From positions 1-64,000 of the IMG/VR virus record IMGVR_UViG_3300033146_001382: DNA of 64,000 bases; one strand, given 5' to 3'. The notes under the pieces were generated by a model. It worked only from the letters and a program-made list of their open reading frames with translations, was not told the origin of the DNA and made no database searches. Within the stretch, counting starts at the first letter, position 1. The number at the start of each line of letters is the position of its first letter. The stretch is from a virus. A program made the translations under genes and the position numbers. Below are positions 1-34,033 of the stretch, in pieces.

Positions 1-170
1 TGTGGGTGGCCACCACGAGGTTGGTGGTGACCATATAACTAGTAAGATTAATTTGAAAGTTAGAAGCCAACAAGGGTGAACACTGACTATATTCCTCTCT
101 AGGCGAGGGTCGCCCTCTGCATCAGGGACAGAGTGACCAAGTACACCATTAACAGGGTGTACGCCTGTTA

Positions 171-653
171 CTAATAGTCGCAAAATCCCTCCATGTTTGC
201 AACCATTTCATAATAAGTTGGGCTGAGTAACCCAACTGTTTCCAACCTGCGGTTGGAGAATATTGTTTTCTCCTGTACCACAGGATAATCTGCCATATAC
301 GTTCCATGGCAGTACCACTTCAATTTACCCAGCATCTCTGCCATGCTGGGTAAAACCCCTATGTAGATGTCTACATCATAATAGACCCGAAGGTCTTTCA
401 TGAATTGGACACCTTTTCTCATTGATGCCGGACACCAATGAGAAACCCAAAGCGAATTGGACTCTTGGTCCAACTCACCCGAAAGTACACTCCCATTATT
501 ATGAACGAGAGTGTACTGATTGAAAATATGTGCTTCCATATTTTCGTACGGAAGCACATATTTGCTATGGTTTTTAGCCATAGCTGAGGAATACCAATGG
601 TATTCCTCTTTTGTAATTGAGTACTGAGTGTACTCTGTTATGGGATAATACAT
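171..653 (-). CDS. Hypothetical protein (160 aa), possibly degenerate GNAT-like fold
   Basis: ORF with GGGGA RBS; preceded by repeat R2; fold guess is weak. Confidence 0.55.
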   Translation of the reverse strand: MYYPITEYTQYSITKEEYHWYSSAMAKNHSKYVLPYENMEAHIFNQYTLVHNNGSVLSGELDQESNSLWVSHWCPASMRKGVQFMKDLRVYYDVDIYIGVLPSMAEMLGKLKWYCHGTYMADYPVVQEKTIFSNRRLETVGLLSPTYYEMVANMEGFCDY

Positions 654-674
654 AATATCCCCTTGTTAAGAGTT

Positions 675-701
675 GCTACCAAGAACCCTGGTAGTTAGGT
701 A
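675..701 (-). repeat. Leader hairpin repeat R2, copy 1
   Basis: gctaccaagaaccctggtagtt(a/g)ggta recurs at 1166-1192; ctacca/tggtag stem. Confidence 0.85.
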
Positions 702-707
702 TCTCTA

Positions 708-926
708 TTAATTTGTATGTAGCTTAATATGACACTCCCTACATACAATTAATAAGTTTTCTCTAGTCGTTTCCCCGCCTTGTGAGACGGGGATTTTATG
801 ATGTGGGTCTGCTGTCCTCATGTCTAAACTAGACCCACACTCTTTACAAGTGTAATTGGCCTGTTTCAAAGCCTTTTTCTTCATAGACTTTGGAAACCTA
901 TTACACTTGGCTCTATTTTTGGCCAT
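708..926 (-). CDS. Small HNH endonuclease
   Basis: CxxC...DPHHKIPVSQGG...N...CRECH motif; RBS aggggag. Confidence 0.85.
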   Translation of the reverse strand: MAKNRAKCNRFPKSMKKKALKQANYTCKECGSSLDMRTADPHHKIPVSQGGETTRENLLIVCRECHIKLHTN

Positions 927-1165
927 AAATCTCTCCCTATAAGAGGTAATTGCCTACCCATCACTTATTTCTCATGCGGGCTTTGGACCGCCAATGGCTA
1001 GTTTAGTAGAGGGGCCACCGAAGGGGCTCCCTAAGTTAAAAATCTATCTCATCCAAAAACGGTTCAGCTGTCTTTGGATACTCATACGTGCCAAAGCAAA
1101 TGGCAGGTATTGGGTTGCCGCATTCTAAACAAATGTTAGAAATAAGACATCTCCAATAGAAGATA

Positions 1166-1192
1166 GCTACCAAGAACCCTGGTAGTTGGGTA
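1166..1192 (-). repeat. Leader hairpin repeat R2, copy 2
   Basis: 26/27 identity to 675-701. Confidence 0.85.
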
Positions 1193-1196
1193 CTAC

Positions 1197-1234
1197 ACCA
1201 CATCAACCCTCAAACCTAGGTTTGAAGGCTCATG
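1197..1234 (-). repeat. Hairpin element R3, copy 1
   Basis: accacatcaaccctcaa...ggctcatg flanks shared with 2130-2167; 9-bp stem kept. Confidence 0.75.
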
Positions 1235-1270
1235 TGATGGCAGGTGTTCGAAGGCACACCTGCCGTAAGC

Positions 1271-1435
1271 CTATAGTCCAGGAATCCATGCCTGAACTAA
1301 TACCTTAGGAAACTCCCAAAACATAGTCCTGATGAATTCCCTGTGATGTGGAGACAGCAGGCAACATATAACCTGTATCTCCACAACAAGAGTGATCCCT
1401 AATATGATTAGGGAATTTCTAATCCATTTTTTCAT
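1271..1435 (-). CDS. Small hydrophobic protein, 54 aa (MKKWIRNSLIILGITLVVEIQ...), absent from ORF track
   Basis: Manual translation; starts at the AGGAG-N6-ATG end of repeat R1. Confidence 0.6.
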   Translation of the reverse strand: MKKWIRNSLIILGITLVVEIQVICCLLSPHHREFIRTMFWEFPKVLVQAWIPGL

Positions 1436-1490
1436 AATGATCTCCTATGTATCATTATAAGGTTATGGCACAGTACCACGCCCTGTGCCT
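1432..1490 (-). repeat. 59-bp gene-leader repeat R1, copy 1 (hairpin + AACCTTATAAT + RBS + ATG)
   Basis: Exact match to 2062-2120. Confidence 0.95.
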
Positions 1491-1504
1491 TGGCGATTAC
1501 TTGC

Positions 1505-2065
1505 TTAATACTTTATGTGGGCTACGCCTTCCATAGAATCGTATCCCTTGTCAGTCAGGACCTTTTTCTGAAGACGATTAGCTTCATCCTCAGAGAGGCC
1601 ACCAGCACGGCACTGCTCGATAAGCTTCTTATAAGCAGCCTCACCACGCTTCCATACACTACTATCATCAGTGAAGTGATAGAACCAATCAAACTTGTCC
1701 ATAACAGCAATGATAGCTTCTAGTACAGCCTCGTCATTGTCGTCTCCCTGCTTAACCACTTGGACGGCAGCGAAGTAATGATTACTACCATCAGCATGAG
1801 GGTAACCAACTCCAAACTTATGGTTGTACTTGAGGCCAGAGGCTCTGAGTATAGCCTTGGTATTCTCATGTGCAGTCTGGCCGAAGTCCGATATGTATTT
1901 AGCCATTAGCCTAGCCATTTCCCTTAGGTTACCTGCTACTGCCAGTTTCTGCATCTTGTACTGAAGTACACACTGTTCGAGTGTTGCACCAGTAGGTAAG
2001 CCAGAGATGATTGCGGTGATAGCCAGGTTTGATGTAAATACTGCTACGATGTCTTTGAATGTCAT
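1505..2065 (-). CDS. Hypothetical protein (186 aa)
   Basis: ORF starting at the R1 RBS/ATG. Confidence 0.8.
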   Translation of the reverse strand: MTFKDIVAVFTSNLAITAIISGLPTGATLEQCVLQYKMQKLAVAGNLREMARLMAKYISDFGQTAHENTKAILRASGLKYNHKFGVGYPHADGSNHYFAAVQVVKQGDDNDEAVLEAIIAVMDKFDWFYHFTDDSSVWKRGEAAYKKLIEQCRAGGLSEDEANRLQKKVLTDKGYDSMEGVAHIKY

Positions 2066-2120
2066 AATGATCTCCTATGTATCATTATAAGGTTATGGCA
2101 CAGTACCACGCCCTGTGCCT
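2062..2120 (-). repeat. 59-bp gene-leader repeat R1, copy 2
   Basis: Exact match to 1432-1490. Confidence 0.95.
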
Positions 2121-5917: not shown

Positions 5918-6598
5918 ATGAGAGATGATAACCTATCAGAATTATTCAATATTTCTAGTCAGGGTTGGCTTAGAGGTAAAGCTTCTGAGGGATTTGTTAG
6001 GCCTACTTTAAAGCAGTTTTTTAGCCCAGCCTCCAGTAGTTTTGAGGAAATTTTAGCTGGGATACCAGCTACTATGCCGTTAACTGAAACAGCTGGTGGT
6101 ACCATGGCTATAAGTGCAAATGGGTTAACTATAACTAAAATAGGGGCTACTGGAGCTTTTACATATTGTTTTCAGGATTCGGCCATTACTAGAGGAAAAC
6201 ACTATTTTGAGGCAACATTTAGTAACCATTTAGGAGATGTAATTGTAGTAGATGACTTTGAAAGTACACGTACTACTAATGGTTCTACAGCTGGAGCGTA
6301 TAGGGCAGATTCTTGGGGAGTTTATAATAGTGGTGGTGGATTATATGAAAGAACTACTAGTGTAGGCTTTATTGGCAGTTTTATAAACGAAACTATAGGA
6401 GTAGGGTTAGATATGGATAATAAACAATTAAATTATTATAAAACTACTGGACTAGTAGGTACAATTTCTAATTTACCTGAGGCAGTGTATGTTGCTTTTG
6501 ATTTACATGCTAGTGGTTCTAGTATTGTTATAAATTTTGGCCAGAATGCATTTAATTTTACAGTACCTAATGGGTATAATTCTGGGTTACTTGTATAA
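5918..6598 (+). CDS. SPRY/B30.2-domain protein
   Basis: GKHYFEA, TIGVGLDMDNKQLNYYK, INFGQNAFNFTVPNGY motifs. Confidence 0.8.
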   Translation: MRDDNLSELFNISSQGWLRGKASEGFVRPTLKQFFSPASSSFEEILAGIPATMPLTETAGGTMAISANGLTITKIGATGAFTYCFQDSAITRGKHYFEATFSNHLGDVIVVDDFESTRTTNGSTAGAYRADSWGVYNSGGGLYERTTSVGFIGSFINETIGVGLDMDNKQLNYYKTTGLVGTISNLPEAVYVAFDLHASGSSIVINFGQNAFNFTVPNGYNSGLLV

Positions 6599-8715: not shown

Positions 8716-11559
8716 ATGAAAACTATATTTAAAATAATTTTAATATTGGTTATACTCTCAACTTCTGTAATTAGCCATGGTGGTTCCAATAAAAAGAAAC
8801 TAATTGTAGGAGCGTTTAATTTCCCTCCTGCAATTTTTTTAAATAGTAACGGGGAGACAGAGGGATTTTTTGTTGACTTACTAAAAGAAATAGCTAAAGA
8901 AGAAGATTGGACACTTAGTTTTAAATTTACAACCTGGAGTAATGGGTTAGAGATGATGAAAAATGGTGATTTAGATATTTGGACTAGTACGGCATACACT
9001 GAAGTAAGAAACGCCTATATGGACTATAGTAACGAGCCTATACTAACAACCTGGGTAGAAATATTCTCCTCTACATCATCTAAAGTAAATAGTATATTTG
9101 ATCTAGAAAATAAAATAGTAGCTATAATGAAAAAAGATATTAATGGTATTATTTTTAAAGATTATATTAAAAAACTTAAAATAGACTGTAATATAAAATA
9201 CTACGAGGATTATTTTACAGTATTCCATGATTTAGAGACTGATTTAATTGATGTAGCAATTGCTAATAATATTGCTGGAGGATCTTATTTTACTAACCAT
9301 AAGGTACGTAGAACTAATATAGTATTAAGTCCATTTTTAATTTATTATACGGTACCAAAAAATAAGAATGCTTATGTAATAAAAGCTATAGACAAACATC
9401 TTAAAAAATGGAAATTAGATAGTAGTTCAATATATTATAAGTCGTTAGATTTTTGGTTACATAAAGAAGCTAATATTCAAAATGTAGTACCTAAGGCTAT
9501 TAAAATTATAGGAGTTATAGCAATAGTAGGATTTTTTATAATGGCTCTAATTATTTTAATATTTAAACATAAGGTTAATTCTAAATCTAGAGATGTACTA
9601 GAAGGTGAAGCTGATTATAAATCAACACTTGAAAATTTGTTAATAGGTATTATAGTGTATAAAAAACATTCTGGAATAATTATGTGTAATGAGGAAGCTG
9701 AAAAAATAATAGGATTAACATACTTACAAATAATAGAGAAGAATAGATCTGTACAAGATTGGGACTTTGTATCTGTTGATAAAACCAACTTAAAATTTGA
9801 AGACTATCCAATAAATAAAGTAATAGCCACCAACAATCCTTTAAAAGATACAGTATTAGGCATAAAAAATATTAATAAACATAGTATCACTTGGGTTTTA
9901 GTGAATGCTGTACCTATCTTTACTATGACTAATAAATTAAAAAAAATTATAGTTAATTTTATAGATATAACACATATTAAACAAACAGAAGAGCAATTAT
10001 TAAAAAATGATCAATTTTTACATACAACTAGTAAATTAGCTAAAGTAGGTGGCTGGGAATTAACTAAAGAAGGTGAAATGACTTGGTCAAAAGAACTATA
10101 CTACATACATGAAATACCTATGGGTGTACCTATTGATACTAAATTACTCATTCATAATTTATTTTTAGACCAAAAAGAGGTGATAGATGAAGCTTTTATT
10201 GAACTATTTAAAAATAAACAGAAGATATCCATCCAACTAAAATTAATAACTAAAGAAACAAAAACAGTTAAATGGCTTAGAGTAATAGCTATCCCTTTAT
10301 TAGACAAGAATGGGGAGGTAGAAAAAGTAATTGGGGCAACTCAAGATATCACTACTGTACATAACTTTGCTAAAGAAAAAGAGTTAATGACTAAGCAGTT
10401 ACAACAATCTCAAAAAATGGAGGCTATAGGTACACTCGCTGGTGGAATTGCACATGATTTTAATAATATACTGTCTGGTATATTTGGGTATACCCAGTTA
10501 GCCGAAATGAGTGTAGAAACCCCAGAAAAAGCCAGAAAACATTTAAAAATGGTTGTAGCTAGTGCTCAAAGAGCTGCAGAGTTAGTACAACAAATTTTAA
10601 CTTTTAGTAGAACACCAGATAAAGATCTAGCACCATTAAAAGTATATATAGTAATTAAAGAGGCTATGAAATTACTAAGAGCTTCAATACCTTCCTCAAT
10701 AAAGTTTACTGTAGACATCCAATCTAAAGGAAGTGTAAAGATGGACCCTACTAAAGTACACCAAATTATAATGAATCTAGTGACTAATGCATACCAAGCT
10801 ATCGGAGATGCTGAGCAGGGGGAAATAACTATAGTAGTAAGAGAAATATTTTTAAACAAAAAAGGAGTAATACCTAATGTAGGTCTTAAAAAAGGTGAGT
10901 ACTTAAAACTATCAGTAAGTGACACTGGTACAGGTATGACTAAAGAAGTACAAGAACGACTATTTGAACCATACTACACTACTAAAATAAAAGGGAAGGG
11001 TACAGGTTTGGGGCTGTCTATAGTGCATGGAATAGTTACCAATGCTGGAGGCCAAATTAATGTATATAGTGAATTAGGCATAGGTTCATCTTTTAATATT
11101 TATTTACCTCTCAGTGTAGAACTAACAGCCTATGAGAATAAAAAAGTAACTATCACTGATAAAGAGCTACTTAAAGGTACTGAAACCTTAATGATAGTAG
11201 ACGATGAGCCTATGGTAGTATCAGCTTTTCAAACTATATTAAATCAGTATGGCTATACTGTAGATATTTTCAAAAATGGAGCTCTAGGGTTAGAAGCATT
11301 CAAAAAATATCCAACCAGATATAATCTAATAGTTACAGACCAGACAATGCCAATTATGACTGGGGCAGAAATGTCAAAGCGTATTTTGGATATTAACTCT
11401 GATATGCCTATAGTTCTTTGTACAGGGCATACAGAACAAACTACAAAGGAGCAATGGAAGACTATAGGAATAAAAGGAATTCTAAATAAACCAGTACTAA
11501 CTAGTGATTTATTAATGTCTATTAGAACTATATTAAATAAAAAAGAGATAATTAAATGA
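8716..11559 (+). CDS. Hybrid sensor histidine kinase: SBP_bac_3 sensor, TM, two PAS, HisKA, HATPase, receiver
   Basis: GIAHDFNNIL H-box, MNLVTNA N-box, DTGTGM G1, KGTGLGLS G2, IVDDEP/TDQTMP/NKP receiver motifs. Confidence 0.95.
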   Translation: MKTIFKIILILVILSTSVISHGGSNKKKLIVGAFNFPPAIFLNSNGETEGFFVDLLKEIAKEEDWTLSFKFTTWSNGLEMMKNGDLDIWTSTAYTEVRNAYMDYSNEPILTTWVEIFSSTSSKVNSIFDLENKIVAIMKKDINGIIFKDYIKKLKIDCNIKYYEDYFTVFHDLETDLIDVAIANNIAGGSYFTNHKVRRTNIVLSPFLIYYTVPKNKNAYVIKAIDKHLKKWKLDSSSIYYKSLDFWLHKEANIQNVVPKAIKIIGVIAIVGFFIMALIILIFKHKVNSKSRDVLEGEADYKSTLENLLIGIIVYKKHSGIIMCNEEAEKIIGLTYLQIIEKNRSVQDWDFVSVDKTNLKFEDYPINKVIATNNPLKDTVLGIKNINKHSITWVLVNAVPIFTMTNKLKKIIVNFIDITHIKQTEEQLLKNDQFLHTTSKLAKVGGWELTKEGEMTWSKELYYIHEIPMGVPIDTKLLIHNLFLDQKEVIDEAFIELFKNKQKISIQLKLITKETKTVKWLRVIAIPLLDKNGEVEKVIGATQDITTVHNFAKEKELMTKQLQQSQKMEAIGTLAGGIAHDFNNILSGIFGYTQLAEMSVETPEKARKHLKMVVASAQRAAELVQQILTFSRTPDKDLAPLKVYIVIKEAMKLLRASIPSSIKFTVDIQSKGSVKMDPTKVHQIIMNLVTNAYQAIGDAEQGEITIVVREIFLNKKGVIPNVGLKKGEYLKLSVSDTGTGMTKEVQERLFEPYYTTKIKGKGTGLGLSIVHGIVTNAGGQINVYSELGIGSSFNIYLPLSVELTAYENKKVTITDKELLKGTETLMIVDDEPMVVSAFQTILNQYGYTVDIFKNGALGLEAFKKYPTRYNLIVTDQTMPIMTGAEMSKRILDINSDMPIVLCTGHTEQTTKEQWKTIGIKGILNKPVLTSDLLMSIRTILNKKEIIK

Positions 11560-11984
11560 TCTATTTTAAATACTTATACTATATACTTAATCATAAGTGG
11601 GATGTAGGTATAGAGTGCATAAAACTTAAATTATATTGGCATGCTATAACTCATGATCTATCTAAATTTTATCCATCAGAGTTTAAAGCCTATGCTAAAC
11701 ATTTCTATGCTGGGCCTAATAGAAGCTTATTTGAAACAGCTTGGTGCTTACATCAACATAGAAACAAACATCATTGGGAATATTGGGTAAAAGCTGATGG
11801 ACACACTGTACCGATGCCAGAGCAGTATGTAAAACAAATGGTGGCAGACTGGAAAGGCATGGCTAGAAATAAAAAATTTGATCCGGCTGGTATTTTTTAC
11901 ATTAAAAATAAATATAAAATGAAGCTACATAAACAAACCAAAGCTTGCATATTAAAACTATTATATGAGGAAATTTATGACTAA
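11556..11984 (+). CDS. DUF5662-like HD-fold protein
   Basis: HDLSKF...HQHRNKHHWEYW...MVADW. Confidence 0.75.
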   Translation: MIYFKYLYYILNHKWDVGIECIKLKLYWHAITHDLSKFYPSEFKAYAKHFYAGPNRSLFETAWCLHQHRNKHHWEYWVKADGHTVPMPEQYVKQMVADWKGMARNKKFDPAGIFYIKNKYKMKLHKQTKACILKLLYEEIYD

Positions 11985-13547: not shown

Positions 13548-14201
13548 ATGCAAGTAAAAAATAAAACATTACAAAATTTACTATTAAATATAGTAGAGTA
13601 TAGTCATGATATTATATGGATTATAGACACTAATTTAATTGTAGTATACTTCAATAAAGCTATAGAAAAATACGGTTGGAAACGTGATAATTTAATAGGG
13701 AAAAATATATTAAATATAATGGATAAACAATCAAGTAATTTATTTAAAACTACCATAAATAATAAATTTACTACATGTAGTGAGAAAGCTGCAGTAGTCG
13801 AAACTAATAATTTTTTTAATGGTACTAAAAATATTTTTATTCTAGAGTCTACTTGTAAAGTATTACATAATAACTATGGTAAGATTATAGGACTATATGG
13901 TATCTCAAGAGATGTTACTTGTAATAAGCAATTGGAACAAATAACTTTAGAGAAAGAAAAGAAAAAAATGCTAGTTGAAGTATCCGGAGGTATTTGCCAC
14001 GAAGTAAGTCAACCTTTACAAGTCATGATGGGGTATATAGATCTACTGGATACTACAGAACTTAGTGTAGAAGGTAAAAAATATATAAACAACCTACATA
14101 CTAGTATGAATAGATTAAATACTTTAGTTAAAAAGATACAAAATATAAAAGAATATAAAACTAGGTCATATTTAACTACTAAAATAATTGACCTAGATTA
14201 G
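13548..14201 (+). CDS. PAS + HisKA (DHp) protein lacking an ATPase domain
   Basis: PAS (DIIWIIDTNLIVVYFNKA...GISRDVT) then ICHEVSQPLQVMMGY; ends KIIDLD. Confidence 0.8.
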   Translation: MQVKNKTLQNLLLNIVEYSHDIIWIIDTNLIVVYFNKAIEKYGWKRDNLIGKNILNIMDKQSSNLFKTTINNKFTTCSEKAAVVETNNFFNGTKNIFILESTCKVLHNNYGKIIGLYGISRDVTCNKQLEQITLEKEKKKMLVEVSGGICHEVSQPLQVMMGYIDLLDTTELSVEGKKYINNLHTSMNRLNTLVKKIQNIKEYKTRSYLTTKIIDLD

Positions 14202-14210
14202 GAGTTATAG

Positions 14211-14459
14211 ATGAAAATAGAAAAACGAAAGTTTAAACGAGTTATATTTAAAAATTATGTAAATATTATAAATAATGGTAAAATACTGAAAGTTAAATCA
14301 ACTAATGTATCTAGACATGGTATGTTCTTAAATACCAACGTTTTTAATGTAGGGGATAAATTAGTTGCTATATTCTCAGTACTACTTAATATACCATTAA
14401 AAAAAGATATTATTGTAATTAGAAAAAATAATAATGGGATAGGTATCAAATTTATATAA
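14211..14459 (+). CDS. Stand-alone PilZ-domain protein
   Basis: RKFKR (RxxxR) and NVSRHG (NxSxxG) motifs; terminal GIGIKF. Confidence 0.85.
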   Translation: MKIEKRKFKRVIFKNYVNIINNGKILKVKSTNVSRHGMFLNTNVFNVGDKLVAIFSVLLNIPLKKDIIVIRKNNNGIGIKFI

Positions 14460-14469
14460 CTTAGTTATA

Positions 14470-14655
14470 CTAACATTGTACTGTACATTTAGAACTAAAT
14501 AGTCTTTTAAAAAACATAATAAACCCTCTTTGTTGAGGAGGTGCAGTGTCCCACGGAGGATTCTCCCATTTTCCAGAGTTACAAATAAATACTGACTCAA
14601 TGGGTAAAGCAGTTGAGTTTGTTTTAGTTAGTGTTGGTTTTGTCCAATTTTTCAT
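14470..14655 (-). CDS. RiPP-precursor-like peptide (61 aa)
   Basis: AAGGAG RBS; leader MKNWTKPTL (WxxPxL); PIESVFIC; three Cys. Confidence 0.6.
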   Translation of the reverse strand: MKNWTKPTLTKTNSTALPIESVFICNSGKWENPPWDTAPPQQRGFIMFFKRLFSSKCTVQC

Positions 14656-14683
14656 AATTTATCTCCTTTATAATTTACATAAG

Positions 14684-15526
14684 TTAGTTTATTAAGTCAT
14701 TTTCTATATCATTTATTACATTGTAGGATAAATCAAAATATAAATTACTATACTTTATATCTTGTAATTTATATATTTTTTTTACATACTCTAGATCTAC
14801 ATTAAAATAGCTAACTATATTTTTATATAATTCTTCCACTTTATTTGGTGTTTCTATTATAGTTATATTAGTTGATTGATATAAAAAATAGAATTTATTT
14901 ATATATGCGGTTAAATTACTAGTTTTTTCATAAGATCCATGACACCAATGACCGAAAGCCTTATTACCTAATAAAATAGTACGGTCATCACATAATAACG
15001 ACCAGCCGCGTTGTTCTAATTTTTTAGACAAAGTAGATTTACCAGTACCTGAACTACCTAGTAAAGTTATAGCTTTATTATTTTTTATTAAACTATTACC
15101 ATGTAAAATTAAACCATTATTTTTAATTACATATGGATATAACATCACTTGATCAGAATAAAATACACATAAATTATTAATTAACTTTTTATTATAAATA
15201 CTTATTATATTTTTTGGAAGATATATCCGCCAATCAGTTAGCTCTTTATTAACAACAGCTTTTATATTATAAGGTTTATAAAAATATAATATATCTGTAT
15301 TACTTTCTTTTATAATCCAGGTAGAATTTTGAAATCTAGTTTTATATTTTTTAAAAAAATTAAATTTTAATTTAAATAGATTATGAGTTATTTTAATATC
15401 TATATCATTAGTATTATCTATATCTACTTTAAATTTATTAAATTGCTCATTTAAAACTAAACTACTTTTAATTGGCGTATTTAATTCTATTACACAGTTA
15501 CATGTTTTATAATAACTTTTATACAT
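14684..15526 (-). CDS. HprK-related P-loop kinase (RiPP-cassette type)
   Basis: GLILHGNS...LLGSSGTGKST...LLCDDRTIL...HWCHG. Confidence 0.8.
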   Translation of the reverse strand: MYKSYYKTCNCVIELNTPIKSSLVLNEQFNKFKVDIDNTNDIDIKITHNLFKLKFNFFKKYKTRFQNSTWIIKESNTDILYFYKPYNIKAVVNKELTDWRIYLPKNIISIYNKKLINNLCVFYSDQVMLYPYVIKNNGLILHGNSLIKNNKAITLLGSSGTGKSTLSKKLEQRGWSLLCDDRTILLGNKAFGHWCHGSYEKTSNLTAYINKFYFLYQSTNITIIETPNKVEELYKNIVSYFNVDLEYVKKIYKLQDIKYSNLYFDLSYNVINDIENDLIN

Positions 15527-15532
15527 ATATAA

Positions 15533-15560
15533 ATAATAAGTATTATTATTATATTGTCAA
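15533..15560 (-). promoter_or_regulatory. Promoter TTGACA-N16-TATTAT; probably leaderless mRNA
   Basis: -10 ends 6 nt before the ATG at 15526; no SD. Confidence 0.6.
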
Positions 15561-15924: not shown

Positions 15925-16695
15925 ATGGCTAGATTATCTAGAGTTTTTAGTAAAAAGCGGTGTAAAAACAATCAAACCAATAAATCCACATTAATGGATC
16001 GAATGACGTCTAGACAAAATAGTAGTATGATTAGTGATAATAATCTTTTAGGTGATTTATTTATTACTACTGATATGGATAATATAGTAGACTTAACTCA
16101 ATTACATAAACCAATTGTGAGTAGACTTAAAACTTCGACTAAAATAACTAATTTACAGAATAAAACTAGTATAGCATTTGATGGTAAAGACGCTAATTTA
16201 AATATACTTGATAATGGTAATTTTAATTTTAATATAGATGATTTTTCAATTGACTGGTGGGAATACCAATTACCAGAACCAGACGGTTGGGAATTAGAAG
16301 TAGCTACTACCCAGTATATTGTATATAAAAATTCTATTGATAAAAAAGCTCCTTTACAGATATCTAATAGCCCAGATAAAACTATTTCTATTTCTAGTGA
16401 TGGTAGCCATTGGGATATATCAGATAATAGATATATAGGTACTGTAGACTATAATAAATGGACTCATTGGGCCATAGTAAGAGCTAATAATAATTTTTAC
16501 ACTTTTAAAAATGGGGCAATAAAGAATATATGGTCATCCTCTAAAGCTATTAATTCTTCAGACGGTTATTTAACTTTTGGTAGTAATCCTAAAGGTAATA
16601 ATTTTTATGGTTATTTAGATAAAATACGTATTATAAAAGGCACTTCATTGTGGACAGATGAGTTTAAACCCACAAAAGAGGATTTATTTTATTAA
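15925..16695 (+). CDS. LamG/concanavalin A-like domain protein
   Basis: DFSIDWWEY, WTHWAIVR, GYLDKIRIIKG...WTDEFKP. Confidence 0.85.
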   Translation: MARLSRVFSKKRCKNNQTNKSTLMDRMTSRQNSSMISDNNLLGDLFITTDMDNIVDLTQLHKPIVSRLKTSTKITNLQNKTSIAFDGKDANLNILDNGNFNFNIDDFSIDWWEYQLPEPDGWELEVATTQYIVYKNSIDKKAPLQISNSPDKTISISSDGSHWDISDNRYIGTVDYNKWTHWAIVRANNNFYTFKNGAIKNIWSSSKAINSSDGYLTFGSNPKGNNFYGYLDKIRIIKGTSLWTDEFKPTKEDLFY

Positions 16696-30458: not shown

Positions 30459-30986
30459 ATGGGCGGCCAAGGTAGTGGTAAACCAAAAAAACCAGTAATT
30501 AAAAAGTTAATAAAAGAGATAATTCCTACTAGTAAAATTTTCTCAGAAGATGAAGCTCAAATGTATGAAGATTTTATGGCAGCTTATTTAGCTGATTTTG
30601 ACGCTGATGAATTAATCTCTAGCGACATGGATGATATAATGAATTTAGCTCTTAATAAGGTATTATCGTTCAGACTGTTAAAAGAAAGTAAGGATGATAC
30701 TGATAGACAAATTGATATAGCAGCAACTCTTGAAAAATTAGATAAGCGTAATGAAAAAATAAAAGAAAGTTTATCTACAAGACGCCGTGATAGAATAAAC
30801 CCCAACGAATTAAAAGGATTTTCTATTGTTGATCTAGCTGTAGCGTTTGACCAAGAGGCTAAGGCAGCTCAAGCTAAGCGTATGGAAAAATTACGTAAAG
30901 AAGAGAGAGATATTTTAAAGAAAAGAGAATCATACGAAGGGAATAAGAATGACCTAGAAGAAACTAAACAGGATGACGAATATTAA
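30459..30986 (+). CDS. Probable terminase small subunit
   Basis: Helical protein immediately upstream of and overlapping terL. Confidence 0.55.
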   Translation: MGGQGSGKPKKPVIKKLIKEIIPTSKIFSEDEAQMYEDFMAAYLADFDADELISSDMDDIMNLALNKVLSFRLLKESKDDTDRQIDIAATLEKLDKRNEKIKESLSTRRRDRINPNELKGFSIVDLAVAFDQEAKAAQAKRMEKLRKEERDILKKRESYEGNKNDLEETKQDDEY

Positions 30987-33900
30987 TGACTAAGAAGAGG
31001 CACAATTTAGATGATTTAATGGTGCAAGGTAAAGATCTAATTTCATTTTATAGGGCACATCCATGTATTGCTGCTTATGAACTACTTGGAGTTGATTTAG
31101 CCCCCATACAACGGCTTGTATTTAGGGATATGTGGTTTAAGAGTTATGTTATAGCAGTGTGCGGGCGTGGTTATGGAAAAAGTCAGTATACTGGATCACT
31201 CATACATACTAAATTGGATGGGTTAGTATATCTAAATGAGGTACTTCCACCTATTCCAGCCCATTTAAGTGATGGTGAAGAGGAAGTAATTGATTGGGTT
31301 GATGAGATTTATACATCTGAGGGGTTTAGAAATACTAAAAAATTATGCCTGGAAAAAGGTATTACTGGAAAAAAAATCATAACTCAAAACTATTATGAGA
31401 ACAAAGGAAGTACTCATCACCCATTGTTAGTGTTAAATTCTAAGTGTTGTTTTGAATATAAAAGTATGGATGAATTTATTCCAGGGGACAGGATATGTAT
31501 ACAAAGAGGACAAAACACTTTTGGTAATAATTTAATACCTTTAGATGAGGCTTACTTAATAGGTTTATTTATAGGTGGTAGTTTTATAGGTAGAAAAAAT
31601 TATATAAAGATTACCACCACAGATAATTACATTAAAGACTTTTGCATTAATTTCTGTATCAATAATAGTGTATCATATAGGGTTGACAAAGATAGATGTA
31701 CTGAGGATGGCTTTAGTATTTATTTTAAACAATTCGTATCATTTTTTGATAGACACAGTATTGATATGGAGACATCTTACACTAAATCAGTACCATACTC
31801 TGTGCGTACTTCTTCTAGAGCATCTCAAGTAGCATTTTTACAAGGGTACTTCGATACTAATAGTACTGTCTATAGAACTAATGGTAGTGTGTCATGTTAC
31901 TCTGTATCTAAGAAACTGCTAAAAGAAGTTCAAATGATGCTACTAAATTTTGGTATAATAGCTAGACTAAGAAAAAAGAAAACTAAGTCTAAATTTGGTA
32001 AAGTTTACTTATTGGATATGTGCTTAGATGACGCTTTAAAATTTAAAGAATTAATAGGGTTTAGATTAAAAAGAAAACAATTTATATTAAATAATTATTT
32101 TCATAAAAAAGAACTTAACGTAGATAAAACTACTATACCGTATGCATTACAATTGTGTTACTCCATAACACAATACTACCATAATAAATATATCACTTCT
32201 AAAAAACCCCCATTTAACATACGAATTACTAATAAAAAAGAGATAACTTACGATAGGTTAACTAGGTTTTTATCTCAATGTGAAGATATTGAACTTGCTG
32301 GATTTAGTCTTATAGAGGTAAGAGAGGACATTTATAAATTAAAAGAGATACTAAAATATAATTACTATTTTGATACTGTTATTTCAATAGATGACTGGAA
32401 AGGTGATTGTTACGATTTTGAAATGAATATGGAAACTGATGTTGAGCCAAATTATTTTTCTAATGGGTTTATAGCCCATAATACTTTTATGTTAGGTACT
32501 TTAGCAGCATTAAGTTGTTTACTATACCCAGGCTATAGAGTAGGTCTAATTGGCCCAGTCTTTAGACAATCAAAAATGATTTTTTCAGAAGTTGAAAAAT
32601 TGTATGATCAGTCACCCATTCTACGAGAAGCTACTGCTAAAAAACCTACTAGGGGGTCTGATACATGTTATTTAAAATTTAAATCTGTAGCAGGCAAGAC
32701 TCCATCATATATCGAAGGACTTCCTCTAGGAGATGGTAGTAAGATTCGTGGATCTAGATTTTATTTAATACTTATAGATGAGTTGGCACAAATACCAGAT
32801 CAAACACTTGATATGGTTGTACGTCCAATGGGGGCTACAGCCTTAGCACCAATGGAGAGAGTTAGACGTCTAGAAGAGCAAACAAGGCTAATAAAAGCAG
32901 GACTAGCTGTAGAAGAAGACTTCCAAGAAGAGAAAGTAAATAAGATGGTTATGACTTCTTCAGGTTACTATAAGTTTAACCATATGTGGCGAAGAATGAA
33001 GGATCATTGGAAAATGATGGTAGAGTATGAGGCTAAGGGTGAGGAATGCCCTTACTCTGTTTGGCAAGTCCCTTATTGGGATCTACCTGATGGGTTTTTA
33101 GATAAAGCTAATATTGCTGAAGCTAAACGTATAATGTCGTCACATGAGTACAGTATGGAGTATGAAGCCGCTATGGTGTCCGATTCAGAAGGTTTTTTTA
33201 AAGCTTCTTTATTAGAAGAATGTACTATAGACTCTGATTTTACTACTCTTCATAAAGGTGATCCAAATAAGAGTTATGTAATTGGTGTAGACCCTAATCA
33301 AGGGGGATCAGCTAGTTGTGGTGTTATAGTTACTGAAATGGGTAAACCTAACAAAATTGTAAGTGTGTTAGAATTGATGTCAAAGACTACTCAGGGATTG
33401 ACACAAGCAGTGCAATCTTTATGTGATCAGTATAAAGTAATAAGAATATTTATGGATAGAGGTGGTGGAGGTAAAGCCATCATGGATCTACTAGAAGAAG
33501 GTTATGGTAATGTTGAACCTATTATAGATAGAGGTAATCCTGATAATATTCATAAAGATGGTAGACATATTTTAGAAATGGTTAATTTTAATCCTTCTTG
33601 GATTTCTGATGCCAATTTTACTACTAAATCTATGTTTGAAGATAAGAGTTTAAGATTTCCAGAATTAACTGTGAGCGCCAACGATTTAATGGCAAGGACA
33701 TATGAGTCTATAACTACATTAAAATCTCAATTATTAAGTATAGTTGTAACACAAACTTCTACTGGCATCTTACATTTTGATACTCCCACTAAAAGTATGA
33801 ATAAGGATTTATATTCTGCTTTGATACTTGCAGCACATGGTATTAGAATGGTGGAAAGGGAACTAGAAGAAGGGGAAGAACCCATACTACATAATGATAG

Positions 33901-34033
33901 TGGTTTATTTAGAAGTCGTACTGGTAGTCAGGGGTTTAATTACTTAGGTTCGGCTGGTAATATGGGCCTAGGGGCACCACCTATAGGTAGATTTGGTTTG
34001 GGTTCTGCCGTGTTACATAGGAAGAAAAAGTAA
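30986..34033 (+). CDS. terL: Terminase large subunit with intein
   Basis: GRGYGK/T Walker A, ILIDE Walker B, IGVDP nuclease, KDLYSA. Confidence 0.93.
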   Translation: MTKKRHNLDDLMVQGKDLISFYRAHPCIAAYELLGVDLAPIQRLVFRDMWFKSYVIAVCGRGYGKSQYTGSLIHTKLDGLVYLNEVLPPIPAHLSDGEEEVIDWVDEIYTSEGFRNTKKLCLEKGITGKKIITQNYYENKGSTHHPLLVLNSKCCFEYKSMDEFIPGDRICIQRGQNTFGNNLIPLDEAYLIGLFIGGSFIGRKNYIKITTTDNYIKDFCINFCINNSVSYRVDKDRCTEDGFSIYFKQFVSFFDRHSIDMETSYTKSVPYSVRTSSRASQVAFLQGYFDTNSTVYRTNGSVSCYSVSKKLLKEVQMMLLNFGIIARLRKKKTKSKFGKVYLLDMCLDDALKFKELIGFRLKRKQFILNNYFHKKELNVDKTTIPYALQLCYSITQYYHNKYITSKKPPFNIRITNKKEITYDRLTRFLSQCEDIELAGFSLIEVREDIYKLKEILKYNYYFDTVISIDDWKGDCYDFEMNMETDVEPNYFSNGFIAHNTFMLGTLAALSCLLYPGYRVGLIGPVFRQSKMIFSEVEKLYDQSPILREATAKKPTRGSDTCYLKFKSVAGKTPSYIEGLPLGDGSKIRGSRFYLILIDELAQIPDQTLDMVVRPMGATALAPMERVRRLEEQTRLIKAGLAVEEDFQEEKVNKMVMTSSGYYKFNHMWRRMKDHWKMMVEYEAKGEECPYSVWQVPYWDLPDGFLDKANIAEAKRIMSSHEYSMEYEAAMVSDSEGFFKASLLEECTIDSDFTTLHKGDPNKSYVIGVDPNQGGSASCGVIVTEMGKPNKIVSVLELMSKTTQGLTQAVQSLCDQYKVIRIFMDRGGGGKAIMDLLEEGYGNVEPIIDRGNPDNIHKDGRHILEMVNFNPSWISDANFTTKSMFEDKSLRFPELTVSANDLMARTYESITTLKSQLLSIVVTQTSTGILHFDTPTKSMNKDLYSALILAAHGIRMVERELEEGEEPILHNDSGLFRSRTGSQGFNYLGSAGNMGLGAPPIGRFGLGSAVLHRKKK
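31181..32482 (+). mobile_element. Intein (434 aa) with degenerate LAGLIDADG endonuclease
   Basis: Starts Ser66, ends FSNGFIAHN before Thr; removal restores GRGYGKTF. Confidence 0.92.

Follow-up and report, generated by a model that had tools for sequence, protein, structure and literature searches.

We find that an uncultured jumbo phage, apparently virulent, encodes an intact hybrid sensor histidine kinase of 947 amino acids (P0001), which its lineage has kept under purifying selection and which shares the genome with further genes of signal transduction. The phage thus probably has its own signalling pathway and does not merely use that of the host. The gene lies at positions 8716..11559 of the analysed DNA, a stretch of 64,000 nucleotides (the window) from an IMG/VR phage record of 189,441 bp with a CheckV completeness of 72%; all features of the window given below are on the + strand. 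Its assignment is carried by the open reading frame, the Pfam domains, two orthologs (P0002 and P0003) and an overall dN/dS of 0.11 between P0001 and the ortholog of a sister phage.

The reading frame starts with ATG about 10 nt downstream of an AAAGGA ribosome-binding site, and the domains follow each other in the order signal or first membrane segment, SBP_bac_3, second membrane segment, PAS, PAS, HisKA, HATPase_c and receiver. The N-terminal signal peptide or first membrane segment (approximately residues 1-22, 8716..8781) has a Kyte-Doolittle peak of 2.14 over residues 1-19 and is present in all three orthologs. The second segment (approximately residues 262-284, 9499..9567) reaches 3.28 over residues 264-282 and is conserved in P0002 and P0003. 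Between the segments 1-19 and 264-282, as is characteristic of a periplasmic SBP_bac_3 sensor, lies a type II solute-binding domain (residues 35-235, 8818..9420; PF00497 with 55.6 bits, cut-off 26.4; dN/dS 0.11), which is expected to be extracytoplasmic. Two cytoplasmic PAS domains follow (approximately residues 300-419 and 431-549, 9613..10362; dN/dS 0.115 and 0.09). The first is matched by PAS_9 with 38.6 bits over residues 311-419, above the Pfam gathering cut-off, and the second (around residues 485-549) falls just under it with both PAS_3 (23.9 versus 25.6 bits) and PAS_4.

The HisKA (DHp) domain (residues 572-632, 10429..10611; PF00512 with 42.6 bits, cut-off 26.9; dN/dS 0.05) carries the phospho-acceptor H580 within an AHDFNN H-box, and this histidine is invariant in six homologs. 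In the HATPase_c catalytic domain (residues 677-800, 10744..11115; PF02518 with 84.7 bits, cut-off 26.4) we recognise the N-box (687-692), the G1 box (736-740), the F box (F750) and the G2 box (760-766), with N691, D736/G738/G740, F750 and G762/G764/G766 all invariant. The C-terminal receiver (residues 826-936, 11191..11523; PF00072 with 75.1 bits, cut-off 30.2) retains D829/D830, D875, T903 and K925. Across the six aligned homologs the catalytic residues do not vary, save that T903 is either T or S. By domains and residues (HisKA, HATPase_c and C-terminal receiver) the protein is a class I hybrid histidine kinase. The first-pass annotation had described an intact hybrid kinase of this length with all catalytic motifs, and reading frame, Pfam domains and invariant residues agree with it. 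As read from the alignment, the kinase's receiver has no aromatic residue at position K-3, an absence which has been described for receivers that act as relay intermediates (PMC9981736).

In a sequence comparison with the PDB, the nearest solved structures to the sensor are the amino-acid-binding domains of GlnPQ (6h30) and AncQR (4zv1) and the sensor HK29s of a Geobacter histidine kinase (3h7m), all of the same type II periplasmic-binding fold family. The arginine of the carboxylate clamp is kept as an invariant Arg98. In contrast to the amino-acid binders, the aspartate that binds the alpha-amino group aligns with Asn184, which is invariant in the phage sensor and in its cellular relatives, and the threonine of the carboxylate site aligns with alanine. 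Thus only the arginine (R98) of the alpha-amino-acid triad (Arg, Asp, Thr/Ser; GlnH/HisJ type) is retained. The ligand is probably a carboxylate-bearing compound and, in view of the asparagine and the alanine at the triad positions, probably not a standard alpha-amino acid.

The gene lies in the middle of the contig among phage genes, and terminase, portal, PhoH and HNH genes are found on the same strand of the record. The phage-like, AT-rich codon use noted in the first-pass annotation is borne out. The kinase gene has a GC content of 0.295 and a GC3 of 0.191, compared with 0.331 +/- 0.033 and 0.203 +/- 0.029 in 109 phage ORFs of 150 aa or more on the + strand. Its codon-usage distance is within 1 sd of that of the other long ORFs. 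The leftmost 2 kb are richer in GC (0.435), and we considered a host flank or prophage junction there; yet this part encodes an HNH endonuclease with many PHROG matches and holds no recognisable cellular gene. The window contains no tRNA. A promoter and terminator scan from 6.5 to 16.5 kb returned 87 promoter-like sites against 74.6 expected and is uninformative because the DNA has a GC content of 30%. A search for intergenic 9-mers recovered the ribosome-binding-site motif and nothing else.

A sister phage, represented by a contig of 318 kb (L007), encodes a syntenic ortholog of the kinase (P0002) with 73-75% amino acid identity. Both phages have the same gene order, that is, the kinase and a DUF5662 gene, then genes for a PAS-HisKA protein, a PilZ protein and a Laminin_G_3 protein. 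Independent assemblies of the sister phage come from IMG/VR and Logan, and the arrangement is identical in three assemblies. The third ortholog (P0003, 36% identity) comes from a phage-like contig with a phage tail gene and a DUF5662 gene. Between P0001 and P0002, dN/dS by segment ranges from 0.05 to 0.28, with the six named domains at 0.05-0.12 and two short linkers higher; the values are approximate since dS is about 1.5 and thus near saturation. HisKA is the most constrained part (0.05), and the catalytic domain has a value of 0.10. The comparison among phage orthologs which the first-pass annotation had proposed therefore reveals purifying selection in all domains, including the external sensor.

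Cellular relatives are remote. Among 5.8 billion proteins searched, the nearest are about 30-37% identical over the full length and at most 51% (49-51%) on the kinase core. The named ones belong mostly to the Thermodesulfobacteriota (= Desulfobacterota), as the first-pass annotation had proposed from the architecture. Kinases of Desulfolithobacter dissulfuricans, Desulfoluna spp. and a Desulfobacula sp. have the same full-length domain order (SBP_bac_3-TM-PAS-HisKA-HATPase_c-REC), an H-box of the AHDFNN type and the catalytic boxes. In our tree the three phage kinases cluster (SH-aLRT 91, FastTree 80) on a long stem within the clade of these cellular kinases; the grouping of P0003 with the other two has moderate support. 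The phage copies thus nest inside the cellular group but differ from it by their long branch, their phage genome and their composition. The first-pass annotation itself had named a refuting case, in which the gene is nearly identical to one of the host and lies where the assembly breaks. This case does not apply in view of the distance, the position within the contig and the conserved synteny, and on sequence grounds the gene is not host contamination. We suggest that the kinase is an old capture of a type common in Thermodesulfobacteriota and has since been kept by a jumbo-phage lineage under purifying selection; joined with the relay proposed below, this account has in our estimate about an even chance of being right.

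Hybrid kinases are not confined to this lineage. IMG/VR contains dozens of them, and intact HisKA-HATPase-REC genes are found inside contigs of 250-500 kb which are called viral. These kinases fall outside the clade of the window's kinase in the core tree, and none of 32 IMG/VR kinases is among the eight best matches of the SBP region of P0001. They are likely to be separate captures, as judged from a tree built without their own cellular relatives. A tblastn search of GenBank phages gave weak matches to the core only (22-30% identity), many of them in records which are really bacterial contigs, and provided no useful relative.

Directly downstream, with an overlap of 4 nt at the stop codon of the kinase, is a gene for a DUF5662 protein of 142 aa (11556..11984; PF18907 with 101.7 bits). 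It adjoins the kinase gene in all three phage contigs, and the three proteins are 58-70% identical with invariant H29, H33-D34, H66, H72-H73 and D98. A sequence search of the PDB gave nothing significant, and an AlphaFold model from the three-sequence alignment (mean pLDDT 58.7) was too poor for a fold search.

About 2 kb downstream of the kinase follow the PAS-HisKA and PilZ genes. The PAS-HisKA protein (217 aa, 13548..14201) is matched by PAS_9 with 35.5 bits and by HisKA with 35.3 bits, carries H151 as the conserved histidine, has no HATPase_c domain and ends 60-70 residues past the histidine. The sister phage has an ortholog (57% identity, dN/dS 0.20) in which H151 is invariant. With a sensor domain and a C-terminal HisKA with conserved histidine, the protein belongs to the incomplete kinases of the type "HisKA, no HATPase". 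This type, or "possible incomplete histidine kinase", is a category of P2CS, for which phosphatase activity was deemed as likely as phosphotransfer (Galperin et al. 2018, PMC5847659). In the Galperin proteins, too, sensor domains precede a HisKA at the C-terminus that retains its histidine. At E <= 0.01 Pfam returned PAS families and HisKA only, and the families of ChpT and Spo0B (HPTransfase, SPOB_a) gave no match. A recent duplication of the kinase was considered as the source and rejected, as the protein is merely 26% identical to the PAS2-HisKA region. From its sequence the PAS-HisKA protein is a candidate histidine phosphotransferase or receiver phosphatase.

The PilZ gene (82 aa, 14211..14459; PF07238 with 33 bits, cut-off 22.5) begins 9 nt past the PAS-HisKA gene. 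The protein has both motifs expected to bind c-di-GMP (R6-x3-R10 and N32-x-S34-x2-G37). These motifs and the 9-nt spacing recur in the sister phage, and dN/dS is 0.24. In addition, the record encodes a PAS-only protein of 715 aa, and outside the window (C1:184468-184851) a stand-alone receiver of 127 aa (PF00072 with 61 bits) with D10-D12, D54, T84 and K106. With its catalytic residues intact this is a single-domain response regulator of the CheY/Spo0F/CpdR type. It also matches cREC_REC more weakly, with 30.6 bits versus 61 for Response_reg; Iyer et al. tie cREC to NAD/ADP-ribose systems and not to kinases (PMC7824862). The 318-kb contig that carries the kinase ortholog also encodes an ortholog of this receiver with 82% identity.

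The absence of an output response regulator from the window, noted in the first-pass annotation, holds, the kinase's own receiver being the only receiver domain there. Nor does the record as a whole encode a response regulator with an output domain or a DNA-binding end regulator, and its sole HATPase_c is that of the hybrid kinase. No GGDEF domain was found in the record. A search for Hpt (PF01627) with a threshold of E <= 0.1 returned 0 matches in the 189 kb; as the record is about 72% complete, this does not prove its absence. The first-pass annotation had not connected three further genes with the kinase, namely PAS-HisKA and PilZ within the window and the stand-alone receiver outside it. 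The lifecycle decision which it suggested, if taken as one between lysis and lysogeny, is unsupported because no integrase of the PF00589 family was found in the 189 kb of this record, which is about 72% complete.

The PAS-HisKA protein is a member of a bacterial family. A word-based homolog search with the 217-aa protein returned only itself, and the family came from an exhaustive profile search. It is characterised by a CHE-x-(N/S)-QP H-box and a conserved C-terminal tail (Y-x-T-x2-Y...I-x-DI). At five of six sampled cellular loci a receiver gene of 128-133 aa directly follows the ATPase-less PAS-HisKA gene, and these receivers are of the subtype that the phage carries: they share 34-39% identity with the phage's stand-alone receiver, which is only 21% identical to the kinase's own receiver. 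The cellular pairs are adjacent, whereas 170 kb separate the PAS-HisKA gene from the stand-alone receiver in the phage record, which is linear and about 72% complete. The phage members are short (203-219 aa), and on a phage-like contig (L070) such a short gene is located 345 nt upstream of a gene for a soluble hybrid kinase. A placement of this kinase in the phage clade was tried and given up: its branch is very long, it could not be placed, and its PAS1 is no nearer to P0001 than cellular PAS1 domains are. Compared with the archaea of the Galperin survey, the present subfamily has the distinctive H-box and tail, a dedicated receiver of 128-133 aa and short phage members.

We suggest that signalling could proceed as follows, where the activity of the kinase, the order of the relay, the ligand and the output are inferred from the parts. 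After infection the kinase would insert into the host inner membrane, where its solute-binding domain would read a small molecule of the periplasm and the two PAS domains would contribute cytoplasmic input. H580 would then be autophosphorylated and pass the phosphoryl group to D875 of the kinase's own receiver. Since no Hpt domain was found in the phage, we propose the PAS-HisKA protein as the next carrier, with H151 accepting the phosphoryl group from D875 in the manner of a DHp-type transferase like ChpT or Spo0B, and D54 of the stand-alone receiver would take it over from H151. The PilZ protein, presumably co-transcribed, might couple this step to the c-di-GMP of the host. Because no DNA-binding regulator is encoded, we would expect the output to act on the development of the phage or the physiology of the host through protein-protein interaction and not through transcription. 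That a functional, phage-owned membrane hybrid kinase feeds such a relay of its own with c-di-GMP input seems to us, from the sequences, evenly poised between right and wrong. More tentative, and in our view rather more doubtful, is the far-reaching version in which a virulent jumbo-phage lineage possesses a complete four-step phosphorelay, the ATPase-less HisKA proteins form a new class of phosphotransferases, and an extracellular solute together with host c-di-GMP times development or remodels the host.

Precedents for such a chain are CckA-ChpT-CtrA/CpdR and KinA-Spo0F-Spo0B-Spo0A, in which a hybrid kinase or a receiver intermediate donates the phosphoryl group to a dimeric DHp-type carrier in place of Hpt, with a receiver as the next acceptor (PMC3433190, PMC9981736). 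The best NCBIfam matches to the kinase core include CckA models, and the similarity to CckA, VirA-like and LuxQ models is confined to this core, with scores far below the equivalog cut-offs (VirA-like 301.6 versus 647, CckA 251.9 versus 1000, LuxQ 136 versus 1200). The carrier of the phage differs from ChpT and Spo0B by its PAS domain and by a short conserved tail in place of the degenerate ATPase domain, such that the resemblance is one of functional analogy alone. Unlike the CckA and KinA relays, the phage chain would also end without a DNA-binding regulator.

Alternatively, the kinase could be functional and donate its phosphoryl groups to Hpt proteins or response regulators of the host, for example the partners of its homologous kinases, and so reprogram metabolism, motility or biofilm formation, with PAS-HisKA and receiver forming a separate module. 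This is possible, if rather unlikely. Consistent with it are the lack of Hpt and of an output-domain response regulator in the phage, the identity of up to 51% between its kinase core and cellular kinases, the abundance of such hybrid kinases in the likely donor phylum, and the cellular ATPase-less HisKA/receiver pairs, which are self-contained two-gene units with no adjacent hybrid kinase. However, the long stem and the core identity of 49-51% suggest that partner specificity has drifted, both sister genomes keep their own receiver and HisKA carrier, and on contig L070 a hybrid kinase gene and a short PAS-HisKA gene do adjoin. Given that the phage carries PAS-HisKA, PilZ, the stand-alone receiver and the 715-aa PAS-only protein, we consider a relay internal to the phage at least as likely as the direct supply of host regulators.

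Less probable still, and on the whole unlikely, is that the kinase serves chiefly as a phosphatase or phosphate drain and PAS-HisKA as a PAS-regulated receiver phosphatase, which together would shut down a receiver of the host or of the phage. In the alignment the H-box of the kinase does read H-D-x-x-N, the phosphatase motif of HisKA; HisKA proteins that lack the ATPase cannot phosphorylate themselves, and a role as phosphatases has been proposed for them (PMC5847659); and CheZ is encoded beside one cellular family locus and CheX beside another. Yet a pure phosphatase would not need the invariant ATP boxes of the hybrid kinase nor a catalytic domain held at a dN/dS of 0.10, and in the PAS-HisKA family position H+4 aligns as glutamine and not as the threonine or asparagine of the phosphatase motif. 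That the gene is a passenger, be it a recently captured host gene with no phage role, mis-assembled or mis-called host DNA or a decaying gene, is highly improbable and close to refuted: many IMG/VR kinase matches do lie at the ends of short contigs, possibly in host flanks, and the record is linear and incomplete, but this kinase gene sits mid-contig with phage genes of the same strand and composition, recurs in one arrangement in three independent sister-phage assemblies, has no close relative among the 5.8 billion proteins and combines a dN/dS of 0.11 with intact motifs. We therefore retain the phage-owned relay as the preferred reading.

For a eukaryotic virus a related role has been put forward. 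According to a passage in PMC12993054 which cites Delaroque et al. (2000, 2001), hybrid kinases of the brown-alga giant virus EsV-1 were proposed to sense cues for viral activation. EsV-1 is of an unrelated lineage, has another kinase architecture, and integrates and becomes latent, whereas here we deal with a tailed phage in which no integrase was found. In the literature searched we found no paper that describes a phage-encoded histidine kinase. Sensing by phages is known through small peptide or quorum-sensing receptors such as arbitrium AimR and VqmA-Phi, mostly in temperate phages.

In summary, we describe a large, probably virulent phage which carries a full membrane sensor kinase under selection and, on paper, enough parts for a relay. 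The ATPase-less HisKA proteins emerge as a conserved bacterial family with a dedicated receiver partner, and this makes the question of phosphotransferase versus phosphatase directly testable, for which the small phage proteins are convenient material. If the proposed relay is true, a virus would install its own environmental sensor in the envelope of its host.

The hybrid kinase is encoded in one open frame of 947 codons (window 8716-11559(+)) with an ATG start and the ribosome-binding site AAAGGA about 10 nt 5′ of it. Over the Pfam gathering cut-offs, the protein has an SBP_bac_3 domain (residues 35-235), a first PAS domain (311-419), HisKA (572-632), HATPase_c (677-800) and Response_reg (826-936); a second PAS domain (residues ~485-549) scores slightly under its cut-off. 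The residues which define an active kinase and receiver are all there (H580; the N, G1, F and G2 boxes; D829/D830, D875, T903 and K925), and alignment to five homologs, two from phages and three cellular, shows all to be invariant, except that T903 is T or S. As frame, domain set and catalytic residues were all recovered, the first-pass annotation of an intact hybrid sensor kinase is right in all particulars. Because hydrophobic segments (residues 1-19 and 264-282) lie on either side of the solute-binding domain, this domain should face the periplasm and all residues past 284 should be cytoplasmic. By its sequence the protein is a typical hybrid histidine kinase of the SBP_bac_3-sensor subclass; a score test placed it in none of the curated equivalogs CckA, VirA, LuxQ or others. 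It is highly probable that the kinase is functional and owned by the phage.

The source record, an IMG/VR virus of 189,441 bp (C1) of which the window is the first 64 kb, is linear and 72% complete by CheckV, so that the full phage genome is probably >250 kb. The sole HATPase_c domain of the whole record is that of the hybrid kinase. Further signalling genes encode a 217-aa protein with PAS and HisKA and no ATPase domain (13548-14201), an 82-aa PilZ protein with both c-di-GMP-binding motifs 9 nt past it (14211-14459), a 715-aa PAS-only protein (C1:180146-182293) and a stand-alone receiver of 127 aa with complete catalytic residues (C1:184468-184851). Thus, the earlier remark that no response regulator is present holds for the window, but not for the phage as a whole. 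The stand-alone receiver also matches the cREC family, more weakly, its Response_reg score being twice as high; in a jumbo-phage survey cREC was linked to NAD/ADP-ribose systems, not kinases (PMC7824862). Between the multi-PAS gene and the receiver lie genes for an Hsp20/alpha-crystallin small heat-shock protein (C1:182351-182851; L075:4851-5351 in the segment numbering) and a putative phage metallopeptidase (C1:183133-183606; L075:5633-6106). Domain searches of the 72% complete record found no Hpt, GGDEF or tyrosine-integrase domain.

The top match for the kinase among 5.8 billion proteins, P0002 (948 aa, 75% identical), is encoded on a 318,366-bp contig which is a sister phage. Independent assemblies in IMG/VR (99.996% identical) and from one Logan run gave the same phage sequence. 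Window and sister phage have in common the gene order kinase, DUF5662, then PAS-HisKA, PilZ and Laminin_G_3. The sister phage keeps the PAS-HisKA protein at 57% identity, PilZ at 67%, the multi-PAS region at ~81% and, on the same contig, the stand-alone receiver at 82%.

A profile built from the PAS-HisKA proteins of both phages, searched against 1.84 billion representative proteins, retrieved one coherent family. The N-terminal part consists of one to many PAS domains or of a membrane sensor, the HisKA H-box reads G-x-(I/V)-C-H-E-x-(N/S)-Q-P, and ~60 residues past the H-box the protein ends in a conserved tail, Y-x-T-x2-Y ... I-x-D-I. The literature lists a category of "HisKA, no HATPase" proteins, of which no member has been studied; they have been proposed to be phosphotransfer proteins or phosphatases (PMC5847659). 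Short members (203-219 aa) are located in phage-like contigs. One heads a run of small ORFs on a 54-kb contig with phage families, and another (contig L070) lies 345 nt 5′ of a soluble PAS-HisKA-HATPase-REC hybrid kinase. Amid small unknown ORFs of a further such contig (L066:3789-5284 and L067), a gene for a 278-aa HD-GYP-type (HD_5) protein lies directly 5′ of that for a 214-aa ATPase-less PAS-HisKA protein; after the adjacent PilZ gene of the window, this neighbour is a second tie of the family to c-di-GMP. Adjoining the pair on L070 is a 1083-aa protein (L070:3-3251(-)) whose C-terminal domain is PARP-like and which strongly matches a PHROG (phrog_18612, 6e-60).

The longer cellular members have a stand-alone receiver gene (128-133 aa) ~20-120 nt downstream in five of six readable loci. 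To these partner receivers the phage stand-alone receiver is 34-39% identical, with YA(L/F)TG(H/Y/F) and AGF(D/E)(D/E)xFxKP in common, whereas its identity to the receiver within the hybrid kinase is just 21%. On this resemblance to the partner receivers, both halves of the cellular two-gene unit, the ATPase-less HisKA protein and the receiver, are present in the phage, though unlinked on the record. One cellular cluster (L078:496-4075) consists of HDOD, a receiver, CheX, a membrane ATPase-less HisKA protein and then a receiver, the last being the nearest non-phage relative found for the phage stand-alone receiver (39%). This gene cluster suggests that the family acts in a CheY-like dephosphorylation or relay setting.

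An intact, selected, membrane-anchored kinase, an ATPase-less HisKA protein with conserved histidine, a PilZ protein and a receiver are kept together in two phages which have diverged to ~75% protein identity. We propose that they work as follows. The kinase would sense a periplasmic ligand. In the alignment the sensor keeps the carboxylate-clamp Arg98, and an invariant Asn takes the place of the Asp holding the alpha-amino group in amino-acid binders; this suggests a carboxylate other than a standard amino acid. The kinase would then autophosphorylate and load its own receiver. As no Hpt is available, the obvious candidate for the second histidine would be the ATPase-less HisKA protein, by analogy with ChpT and Spo0B (PMC3433190, PMC9981736). 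The relay would end at the stand-alone receiver. In our reading both phage receivers lack an aromatic residue at the K-3 switch position, a trait tied to relay receivers in a study of CckA (PMC9981736). The PilZ protein, which is translationally close to the HisKA protein, could place this step under c-di-GMP control, and since no DNA-binding output is encoded the output would probably be a protein-protein effect. We regard this specific internal relay as tentative, with at best an even chance of being correct.

Alternatively, the kinase might feed host Hpt proteins or regulators, the HisKA/receiver pair being an independent module; the absence of Hpt from the record and the self-contained nature of the cellular HisKA/receiver pairs speak for such a host route. 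A system which is mainly a phosphatase or phosphate sink would fit the kinase motif H-D-x-x-N, the CheZ and CheX genes near two cellular members of the ATPase-less family and the phosphatase suggestion in the literature (PMC5847659), but has the fully conserved ATP-binding site against it. Synteny, selection, composition and the absence of any close cellular copy all but exclude that the kinase is a passenger gene or an artefact.

The composition of the kinase gene (GC 0.295, GC3 0.191, codon usage) is indistinguishable from that of the phage's other long ORFs. PhoH, large terminase and portal genes lie downstream on the same strand, and the surroundings hold HNH endonucleases and many PHROG-only ORFs. 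The second match in the search of 5.8 billion proteins, P0003 (916 aa, 36% identical over its full length), is encoded on a 7-kb contig where a phage tail gene and DUF5662 adjoin it. All remaining matches are cellular; their full-length identity is ~30-37%, and on the kinase core it does not exceed 51%. The named ones are nearly all from Thermodesulfobacteriota (Desulfolithobacter, Desulfoluna, Desulfobacula, Desulfobacterales MAGs), in keeping with the first-pass annotation of the architecture as typical of Desulfobacterota. Between window and sister phage, dN/dS is 0.11 (dN 0.17, dS 1.5), a rough figure as dS is near saturation, and relaxed selection is excluded. By segment, equally roughly, the ratio is 0.05 for HisKA, ~0.09-0.12 for sensor, both PAS domains, ATPase and receiver, and 0.20-0.28 for two short linkers.

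In the kinase-core tree the pairing of the window kinase with P0002 is fully supported. Support for adding P0003 to the pair is moderate (FastTree 80, SH-aLRT 91), and the trio is nested on a long stem within a cellular kinase clade. Most simply, the gene was captured once, long ago, from a Thermodesulfobacteriota-type donor and has since had a long evolution within phages. A further 32 kinases of IMG/VR putative viral contigs, some of 250-500 kb, are placed elsewhere and are likely separate captures, in a tree without their own cellular relatives. Hybrid kinases with the same H-box type, outside the clade of the window kinase, are found on such contigs of 250-500 kb (L021, L029, L034, L033, L052, L055, L064); in this set one 250-kb contig has two hybrid kinases and a 416-kb contig three receiver-containing ORFs (710, 526 and 162 aa).

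DUF5662 (142 aa; window 11556-11984(+), L007:13104-13541 in the sister phage, L009:2732-3160 in the 7-kb contig) adjoins the kinase in all three phage contigs, downstream in two and upstream in the third, where gene order differs. It is 58-70% identical across them, more conserved than the kinase, and its invariant residues (H29, H33-D34, H66, H72-H73, D98) resemble the motif of HD-type metal hydrolases, for which the AlphaFold model is too poor a test. The sole minus-strand block of that part of the window (14470-15560(-)) encodes a 280-aa P-loop protein with weak PEPCK and HprK-kinase matches and a small ORF; at the matching place the sister phage instead encodes a caspase-like Peptidase_C14 protein (L007:19014-19877). 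Well upstream of the structural genes, the accessory region encodes a SPRY-domain protein slightly under the Pfam cut-off (5918-6598(+)) and a Laminin_G_3/concanavalin-like protein with baseplate-wedge PHROG matches (15925-16695(+)), syntenic in the sister phage. The left record end (window 1-2100) has a GC of 0.435 versus ~0.30 elsewhere, minus-strand ORFs, an HNH endonuclease (708-926) and no host-gene sign; it is possibly a mobile-endonuclease island. In the large terminase protein (30986-34033(+), 1015 aa) the terminase match spans residues 501-957 only, and residues 141-510 match another PHROG whose function is unknown (phrog_9666), which indicates an extra N-terminal domain.

Virus-encoded hybrid kinases are on record for the brown-alga virus EsV-1, according to a citation in PMC12993054. 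Full-text literature searches for a phage or viral histidine kinase under its obvious names retrieved no paper, and the broad jumbo-phage survey names kinases only in stating that the divergent receiver it describes is never linked to them (PMC7824862). What sets this locus apart is that its sensor faces outward, that a full set of candidate relay parts is present and that it is tied to an uncharacterised ATPase-less HisKA/receiver family. The first-pass annotation had considered a lifecycle decision; since no tyrosine integrase was found in the 72% complete record, we disfavour a lysis-lysogeny switch. The system may tune the timing of replication or lysis, or it may remodel host behaviour.
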